Source of the DNA: Promethearchaeota archaeon
GTDB taxonomy: Archaea > Asgardarchaeota > Lokiarchaeia > Sigyniarchaeales > SOKP01
Length of the DNA: 10,597 bases
Direction: 5' to 3'
Assembly (NCBI GenBank): GCA_048941015.1
Contig: JBHLNZ010000095.1
Coordinates: 1 to 10,597 of the forward strand
A program made the position numbers and the translations under genes. Numbering within the stretch: the stretch's first letter is position 1; every line of letters begins with the position of its first letter. Under the pieces are notes generated by a model. It saw only the letters and a list, made by a program, of their open reading frames with translations, had not been told where the DNA came from and made no database searches. Positions 7,546 to 9,289 of the stretch are shown here, piece after piece.

Positions 7546-8508
7546 TTATAATAAACATAAAATGAATGATTGTGAATCTGAAATTGAATCTAAATTAAGT
7601 TTTTTATTTTCTTTTAGGAAATCAGAAATCGGGATTCCTTTTTCAAAAATTTCATTAAATTTATCAAAAAAGATTTGATATATGCTCTTATTTCTAGAAA
7701 TATAATATCCTATTAATTTTTTAGACGGATCAAAACTAGGTTGAATTAGAGCATCATCAGTTAAACTAAAATTGCTAAAATCTTCATCTGTAACATGTAA
7801 TTTTATGCTTCTTATATCTAAATCATATCCTTTCACATGTTCGGATAATAAAGTAAATTCTTCACTTTTCAAAATTTCTTTAATTAATTCTGAGTTAAAT
7901 ATAACTTCAATTTTTAGCTTTTTTAAATTATCTTTAATTTTTATCATACTGTTAGTCATTAGTTCTTTTAATTCCTGAGGAATATTAGATGCCCCAACCT
8001 TCTTTAAGACTGAAATCAAATCGTTCTCATATCTAATTCCCATTGCAATTTTACATTGATTTTCTGCTAAGAAAAATTGGTATGTTTCCTCAAGATTTTT
8101 AAGATTATATTTTATAAATTCTACATATTCTTGGGTAATTTGTTGATCTAATTCATAGTGTTTAATAAATTGATCCAGAGTAGTTTCTGCTTTTTGTTTT
8201 TTTTCTTGAAATTGCTGTGATAATTCTTCAATTCTATTATTGACAATTTTTTGCCATAATGGAATAACCGGGGTTGATAAATGTATTTTCATGGGTCTGT
8301 CGTAAATTTGAACAAGTTCTAACTCGTTTAAAACGGAACAAATTTTATAACCTCTTTTTAACGTAAGGTTAAACTTCGAGCTTACTTCTTTGAGGTTTTC
8401 TATTCTTTTATTTAATAATAAATAATGATAGATCTTTTCAATACCTTTTTCTATCACTCCAATAGTGTCAAATAAATTGCTTAGAGCTAAAAATTGATCA
8501 TCTTCCAT
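7546..8508 (-). CDS. TrmB-like transcriptional regulator (N-terminal winged HTH, coiled coil, C-terminal alpha/beta effector-type domain); start revised to ATG 8508 (320 aa)
   Basis: N-terminus 'EKIYHYLL..ENLKEVSSKFNLTLKRGYKICSVLNELELVQIYDRPMKIHLSTP' fits the TrmB wHTH spacing. It is followed by a coiled coil (NNRIEELSQQFQEKKQKAE) and a C-terminus resembling archaeal TrmB tails (FSLTDD...GYYISRNKSIYQIFFDKFNEIFEKGIPI). SD AGGTGA (8518..8513) lies 4 nt before ATG 8508. Family call is by eye. Confidence 0.62.
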   Translation of the reverse strand: MEDDQFLALSNLFDTIGVIEKGIEKIYHYLLLNKRIENLKEVSSKFNLTLKRGYKICSVLNELELVQIYDRPMKIHLSTPVIPLWQKIVNNRIEELSQQFQEKKQKAETTLDQFIKHYELDQQITQEYVEFIKYNLKNLEETYQFFLAENQCKIAMGIRYENDLISVLKKVGASNIPQELKELMTNSMIKIKDNLKKLKIEVIFNSELIKEILKSEEFTLLSEHVKGYDLDIRSIKLHVTDEDFSNFSLTDDALIQPSFDPSKKLIGYYISRNKSIYQIFFDKFNEIFEKGIPISDFLKENKKLNLDSISDSQSFILCLL

Positions 8509-8512
8509 CAAA

Positions 8513-9055
8513 TCACCTATCTTCAATTTTTTCTAAAGCTTTAACTAAAGTTAACTCAGTTAATACCTCAAATGTTTTATTTACATTTTGACCTGTCTTA
8601 CTAGATATTTCGGCAAAAGATGCCATATTATTTTTTTCTGCTATTTGGATCCCATATTCTCTTGGAACCTTACGCTGATTATCTGCAAGATCAATTTTCG
8701 AACCAACAAGCATAATTGGAATGAGCCCTCCTTTTTGGCGAACTATGCTTGTCCATTCATTAATGTTATCGAGAGTTTGAGGTCGTGTAATATCATAAAG
8801 GAGAAAAGCCGCATTTGCACCTAAACAATAAGTTGGCAAAAGAAATCGAAATCTTTCTTCCCCTCCAACATCCCAAATTTGTAATTTAACCTTTTTTCCT
8901 TGGAGTTCGACAGTTTTAACGTGGAAATCAACTCCAATAGTTAACCGCTCTGATGGATTGAAAAGATTATAGACATAACGCTTAGTGAAGGATGTTTTTC
9001 CTACACTTGCGTCACCTAACAATAAAAGCTTGAAAGTGTAATCATATGTTGGAAT
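8513..9055 (-). CDS. Rab-like small GTPase (Ras superfamily); probable start ATT 9055 (180 aa), ORF track start TTG 9022
   Basis: G1 GDASVGKT, G2/RabF1 TIGVDF, RabF2 KLQIW, G3 DVGG, RabF3-like RFRFLL, RabF4-like YCLGA, RabF5 LLYDIT, G4 SKID, G5 SSK. In-frame upstream codons add IPTYDYTFKLL, matching the Rab beta-1 strand. Confidence 0.93.
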   Translation of the reverse strand: MPTYDYTFKLLLLGDASVGKTSFTKRYVYNLFNPSERLTIGVDFHVKTVELQGKKVKLQIWDVGGEERFRFLLPTYCLGANAAFLLYDITRPQTLDNINEWTSIVRQKGGLIPIMLVGSKIDLADNQRKVPREYGIQIAEKNNMASFAEISSKTGQNVNKTFEVLTELTLVKALEKIEDR

Positions 9056-9062
9056 TTATAGA

Positions 9063-9067
9063 CACCT
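9063..9067 (-). promoter_or_regulatory. Shine-Dalgarno-like site for the Rab-like gene
   Basis: AGGTG located 7 nt upstream of ATT 9055; the same core precedes the MDR and TrmB-like genes. Confidence 0.55.
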
Positions 9068-9289
9068 TTATAAGAATTAATTTTTACCTCAAATTTAATT
9101 AAGCTACGTCATTATGCTAGGGTTTTATTATTTATATAATGTACCCAATTAAAACGATTTTTTGATTATTTCTTATATAAAAATAATTAAAATTGTCTTT
9201 TTTAACTGTTTACTTTTTATTAAAATTATTCATTGTTAGGAACAAGAATCTATATACCTACCAAACCGAGAGAGAAAGCTTTAATTTGT

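Follow-up and report, generated by a model that had tools for sequence, protein, structure and literature searches.

The window, an entire contig of 10.6 kb (10,597 nucleotides) from a Promethearchaeota archaeon assembly of 3.59 Mb and 29% GC, carries on its minus strand a gene for a Rab-like small GTPase, whose full coding sequence (8513-9055; 180 codons plus a TGA stop at 8515-8513) was delimited using Pfam and PDB matches and 24 orthologue loci. Read on that strand, the start region is AAAGGTG TCTATAA ATT CCA ACA TAT GAT TAC ACT TTC AAG CTT TTA TTG TTA GGT GAC, and it includes the following elements, all of them in minus-strand orientation. First, a Shine-Dalgarno (SD)-like sequence, AAAGGTG (9063-9069; core AGGTG, 9067-9063), pairs with the 3' end of the 16S rRNA and is separated from an ATT codon by a spacer of 7 nt. 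Second, an in-frame TAA stop (9056-9058) occupies the end of this spacer, directly upstream of the ATT, and closes the frame on its 5' side. Third, the ATT itself (9053-9055) is the putative initiation codon, which would be read by the initiator Met-tRNA; orthologues point to it, and NCBI calls the same ATT in a 95%-identical assembly. Fourth, the eleven codons from this ATT onwards (9023-9055; I/M-PTYDYTFKLL) encode most of strand beta-1, and are missing from calls that start at an internal TTG (Leu12; 9020-9022), the false start picked by standard ORF and gene callers (the ORF list gives 8513-9022). Fifth, the P-loop (G1; GDASVGKT) corresponds to codons 14-21 (8993-9016), as judged from the sequence and the match to Rab structures.

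No in-frame ATG, GTG or TTG is found between the TAA at 9058-9056 and TTG 9022, and the latter, two codons before the P-loop glycine, is the sole canonical codon upstream of the P-loop. Thus, the layout reported by the sequence-only reading, namely, a TAA followed by ATT, no canonical start before 9022 and AGGTG 7 nt upstream, holds in all its details. As the 3' end of the 16S rRNA of this genome is GGATCACCTCCT, AGGTG is a true complement of the anti-SD. ATT 9055 stands 14 nt from the aligned GGAGGTGA anchor, the most frequent distance for ATG, GTG and TTG starts in this genome. An out-of-frame ATG at 9045-9043, within TAT GAT, was also considered as a start and rejected, as its frame ends after nine codons and the ATG is lost in those orthologues that have TAC GAT.

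The encoded protein has a small-GTPase G domain (PF00071, E 5e-45; TIGR00231) with the motifs GDASVGKT, DVGG, SKID and SSK. Its best PDB matches are all Rabs (E 1e-38 to 1e-36 over residues 3-176), namely, Rab10, Rab8A, Rab30, Sec4 and Rab11, with which it has in common the P-loop and the stretches TIGVDF, KLQIWD and LLYDIT. The Rab-specific RabF motifs include IGVDF, KLQIWD and YDIT, and the three corresponding stretches of the GTPase are both present and conserved. However, three features set it apart from eukaryotic Rabs, and all of them are shared by the 24 orthologue loci. First, the catalytic Gln is replaced by Glu in G3 (WDVGGEERF, residues 62-67), and there is no DTAGQE. Second, G4 reads G[SA]KIDL (residues 118-123), with Ser or Ala, that is SKID or AKID, for the Asn of NKxD. 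Third, the C-terminal Cys motif for geranylgeranylation is absent, since the protein ends in ...LEKIEDR and has no Cys in its last 90 residues. On these grounds the protein may depart from eukaryotic Rabs in GTP hydrolysis, base specificity and membrane attachment, and it is, by its best matches and RabF-type motifs, Rab-like rather than a Rab. A four-residue insertion near the C-terminus, LVKA (8537-8548, minus strand), is seen in none of the 24 orthologue loci, not even in L060, from an assembly with 95% identity.

Downstream of the GTPase, and in the same direction, lies a gene for a protein of 320 residues (7546-8508, minus strand), whose SD, AGGTGA, overlaps the GTPase stop; both genes are probably part of the same operon. 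The order HEAT-repeat gene, GTPase, 320-residue gene is kept across the genus. No match to the 320-residue protein was found in Pfam or NCBIfam, and its protein-atlas features strongly resemble those of TrmB-type winged-helix regulators, which we take as a lead only.

To evaluate how this start region has evolved, we used 24 same-genus orthologue loci with 83-96% identity, 21 of them from as many genomes (L031-L051; 83-89%) and three from public assemblies (L060-L062), where the public relatives carry the labels Lokiarchaeota or Promethearchaeota. Three codons ahead of the conserved Tyr, 15 of these loci have ATT, two ATA, five ATG and two GTG, and the SD anchor stands 13-14 nt from the start codon throughout; L038, which brings the loci with ATT to 16, has it one codon further upstream with the SD distance unchanged. 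AGGTG or GGGTG is found 6-7 nt upstream in all the orthologues with ATT, ATA or GTG and in two of the five with ATG, the remaining three ATG loci (L039, L042 and L045) having weaker SDs. The conservation of SD plus ATT, or else ATA or ATG, in the upstream DNA of orthologues, which had been proposed as a check, is thus borne out, with GTG as a further codon at the start position. The exact start codon is ambiguous in L044, L048 and L050, where an ATA lies immediately 5' of the ATT; and in L031 and L051 the GTG of the SD is in frame and could serve as start in place of ATA. A different arrangement was observed in L035, L040 and L043, whose spacer reads AGGTGTT ATG TAA TT and so contains an out-of-frame ATG-TAA start-stop, with the TAA overlapping the ATT by one base; only 2 nt past the SD core, this ATG is probably too close to be used.

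Selection acts on the gene as a whole and on the stretch that depends on the ATT. Between ATT-bearing orthologues dN is about 0.1, dN/dS is 0.02-0.08 for the pairs with measurable dS, and synonymous sites are saturated in most pairs. Ahead of any canonical start, codons 2-13 of the ATT orthologues yield a pS of 0.71 against a pN of 0.10, and the N-terminal extension must therefore be translated and constrained. Together, the canonical starts that occupy the homologous position in some relatives, the fixed SD spacing and the purifying selection on the extension uphold the proposal that the ATT serves as initiation codon. The lack of a canonical start could also be taken to mean that the gene is a decaying pseudogene; however, the 24 orthologue loci have intact frames and conserve every G motif, and dN/dS is as low as stated above, which makes decay a highly improbable explanation.

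The same data bear on translation from TTG 9022, as standard callers assume, which would yield a protein of 169 residues beginning with MLGD. This TTG is the first in-frame canonical codon and is the one used by many public predictions. However, position 1 of the Pfam Ras profile (PF00071) aligns with residue 9 of the ATT-started protein, and the alignment with Rab10 (5lpn) begins at its residue 3, across TYD..FKLLL.GD; therefore, a start at 9022 would delete strand beta-1, just as had been claimed from the sequence. Moreover, there is no SD ahead of the TTG, nor is this codon conserved, being CTG in L031, while several ATT orthologues, L044 and L048 among them, have no ATG, GTG or TTG at all ahead of the P-loop. 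Added to the purifying selection on the twelve upstream codons, these observations leave the TTG start with very little probability.

The sequence-only reading had offered an alternative of its own, in which one extra A, introduced by an assembly or sequencing error, hides a start at GTG 9065; to this we add the possibility that ribosomes shift from the short frame of GTG 9065 into the GTPase frame. GTG 9065 is located 10 nt upstream of the ATT and deletion of one A brings it in frame. However, an independent assembly (L060), which has 135 mismatches over 2.9 kb (94.95% nucleotide identity), is letter-identical along the SD-TAA-ATT stretch, and an assembly or sequencing error is therefore excluded. 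In addition, the same out-of-frame geometry of 10 nt recurs in at least six further species, and the GTG of the SD is out of frame in the orthologues with a 7-nt spacer; in L032 a TAA comes directly after the GTG of the SD; and two orthologues that start with GTG (L037 and L041) also have the GTG of the SD at this same offset. GTG 9065 is therefore part of the SD and not a hidden start, and no SD is present upstream of it. The alternative is thus refuted as far as the extra A is concerned, and taken together with the frameshift it is extremely unlikely.

What the evidence favours, very strongly, is that ATT 9055-9053 is the real start of an intact Rab-like GTPase gene under selection, and one case of a habit of the lineage. 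A maximum-likelihood tree of the orthologues, rooted with the closest paralogue, has GTG and ATG species at its base. From this topology, ATT was probably the ancestral state of a clade of 21 rows, with ATG regained later on two occasions and ATA acquired on one.

In order to place this start within its genome, we anchored every strong SD 5-mer once on GGAGGTGA, and retained open frames of at least 120 codons with an in-frame stop at most 25 codons upstream, no canonical start in between and none in the next 10 codons downstream; by design, the scan sees only genes with a strong 5-mer SD. At anchor distances of 12-15, where canonical starts peak (ATG 118, TTG 37 and GTG 18; 173 in total), 46 frames open with ATT (24), ATA (15) or ATC (7), the three codons, hereafter ATH, that NCBI table 11 includes among its initiators. 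Equally common AT-rich codons show no peak at this distance (AAA 4, AAT 0, TTA 2 and TTT 2). The remaining 42 codons gave a peak-to-flank count of 31:170, as compared with 46:23 for ATH and 173:92 for canonical codons (Fisher p = 5e-15). Of the strong-SD starts that the scan detected, roughly one in five is thus ATH. CTG (3:2) and ACG (3:0) likewise occur at an SD spacing typical of starts and may be further near-cognate starts, although their numbers are too small to judge.

The 46 ATH candidates include two Ras paralogues, NifU, an enoyl-CoA hydratase, a MinD/CbiA-type ATPase and a GPN-loop GTPase, and in these six the Pfam match reaches back to position 1-3 of its profile, with the first canonical codon following some 10-55 codons later. 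Transporters are also found among the genes with ATH starts, and the scan recovers, in addition, C8:8340, C23:1178 and C143:16050. Both Ras-family paralogues, L070 (C38:12924-13445, minus strand) and L073 (C137:8522-9079, minus strand), have ATT behind GAGGT or GGAGGAG, and their first canonical codons are codons 37 and 62, past the P-loop. With about 40-49 Ras-superfamily paralogues in the genome as estimated by tblastn, ATH starts in some 3-4 of about 40 are no more frequent in this family than elsewhere. Judged from these sequence patterns, ATT, ATA and ATC starts are a genome-wide habit, of which the GTPase is one instance among dozens.

Components of the initiation apparatus were also inspected. 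The single SUI1/aIF1 gene of the genome has no ATG, GTG or TTG ahead of its zinc knuckle, and its frame (L063; C101, first codon at 18839, minus strand) opens with ATA right after AAAGGTTGTGA, with an ATT three codons on; aIF1, the start-codon fidelity factor, thus appears to use a non-canonical start itself. A pattern search located an initiator-type anticodon arm, GGGCTCATAACCC, with a normal CAT anticodon, in a tRNA (C10:11613-11700, plus strand) that was not called by ARAGORN and whose sequence beyond this arm is suggestive of an unusually placed intron. Run on the genome with and without introns, ARAGORN yielded only 16-25 tRNAs, with a tRNA-Sec (TCA) among the calls and no Met or Ile tRNA, which were probably missed owing to unusual introns in Asgard tRNAs.

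The mechanism that is most likely, as we infer it, is near-cognate pairing of the ordinary initiator tRNA, positioned by the SD. First, AGGUG of the mRNA would pair with the 3' end of the 16S rRNA and so place the small ribosomal subunit. Second, this pairing would bring AUU, 7 nt downstream, into the P site. Third, the initiator Met-tRNA, with its CAU anticodon, would pair with AUU despite a mismatch at the third position, and the protein would begin Met-Pro-Thr-Tyr-Asp-Tyr. It is plausible that the yield from AUU is lower than that from AUG.

Such an arrangement resembles that of bacterial infC, which encodes IF3, and E. coli pcnB, where an AUU behind an SD is read by the normal initiator tRNA with a third-position mismatch, as would presumably be the case here. 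However, in bacteria such starts are few, belong to particular genes and are linked to autoregulation by IF3 (PMC4705826), whereas the host of our GTPase is an archaeon with aIF1/aIF2-type factors in which ATH codons account for the share of detected strong-SD starts given above. In the single archaeal system covered by the same review, aIF1 discriminates against AUU in vitro (PMC4705826), and for this reason frequent use of AUU would need a more permissive apparatus in the lineage. A closer parallel is provided by the Kariarchaeaceae tubulin AtubA (Sci Adv 2026, PMC13394414), also from an Asgard archaeon, for which a 'rare ATT start codon' was inferred by the same logic as for the GTPase, given that the deposited protein is without its first beta strand. 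However, this is a different gene in a different Asgard class, and the text available treats it as a one-off, without comparative or genome-wide analysis. In our literature search, AtubA was the sole mention encountered, and no systematic description of ATT or ATA starts in Asgard archaea was found. In Enterococcus faecalis ebpA an ATT is likewise located upstream of the annotated canonical start; that case is, however, bacterial and gene-specific, with attenuation of expression shown experimentally (PMC4447247).

These precedents raise the possibility, already put forward from the sequence, that selection maintains the ATT for the specific purpose of limiting or regulating how much GTPase is made, as in infC. 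The ATT starts of infC (PMC4705826) and EbpA (PMC4447247) attenuate expression in bacteria; the ATT of the GTPase persists across lineages with saturated synonymous sites; and a strong AGGTG or GGGTG accompanies it in every ATT orthologue, when compared with the weaker SDs of three ATG orthologues, as if initiation strength were balanced. This last contrast, between perfect SDs behind ATT and degraded ones behind ATG, hints at compensation. However, ATH starts are scattered over unrelated genes (transporters, NifU, enoyl-CoA hydratase, MinD-like and GPN-loop proteins), just a few of the Ras paralogues use them, and close orthologues swap ATT, ATA and ATG; besides, mutation bias at 29% GC would likewise favour ATT and ATA over ATG. 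We therefore regard selection for dose control as unlikely, and while limitation of the dose of this GTPase by its ATT is possible, it is neither needed nor specifically supported. The reading that we retain is that SD-assisted near-cognate (AUH) initiation is a habit of the lineage and that the ATT is not a device peculiar to the GTPase gene.

The start also has consequences for public annotation. Among about 117-120 best public homologue clusters, 32 begin with MLGD, MLLGD or LLLGD and have 164-169 residues, while in most of the others the P-loop Gly is preceded by 13 residues, the number that the ATT start gives. Four truncated entries were traced to DNA, and all four start at an internal TTG with AAGGTG and an ATT or ATA upstream. 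The prediction that homologues would be annotated as truncated 'MLGD...' proteins is confirmed. NCBI annotation, in turn, starts the gene at the ATT in L060 (position 870) and in L062 (position 1501), and in L061 at the ATA (position 1501) that adjoins the ATT. The ATT call is thus already in GenBank, the truncation comes from Prodigal-style pipelines, and the single gene is by itself ordinary.

As gene callers disallow ATT, roughly one in four public homologue clusters is without strand beta-1, and this absence distorts alignments, structure predictions and expression constructs for the very proteins that are used in arguing the origin of eukaryotic membrane traffic. More broadly, the swaps of start codon along the tree, the saturated dS combined with a constrained N-terminus, and the SD-spacing signal are clean evidence, from comparison, for the acceptance of AUU, AUA and AUC starts by a Loki-type archaeon when a strong SD precedes them. 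Given that aIF1 rejects AUU in the archaeal in-vitro work, stringency towards the start codon may have been relaxed or brought under regulation in the lineage. It is tempting to speculate further, although we hold it to be tentative and rather doubtful, that AUH initiation is a systematic, heritable trait of this Lokiarchaeia-type lineage, affecting some 15-20% of strong-SD genes, including that of aIF1, and that it is embedded in a stringency feedback like those of IF3 and eIF1, in which the yield of the GTPase would track aIF1 activity. If true, such a feedback would exist in those archaea that are most closely related to eukaryotes, and the Rab-like GTPase would be one of its clients.
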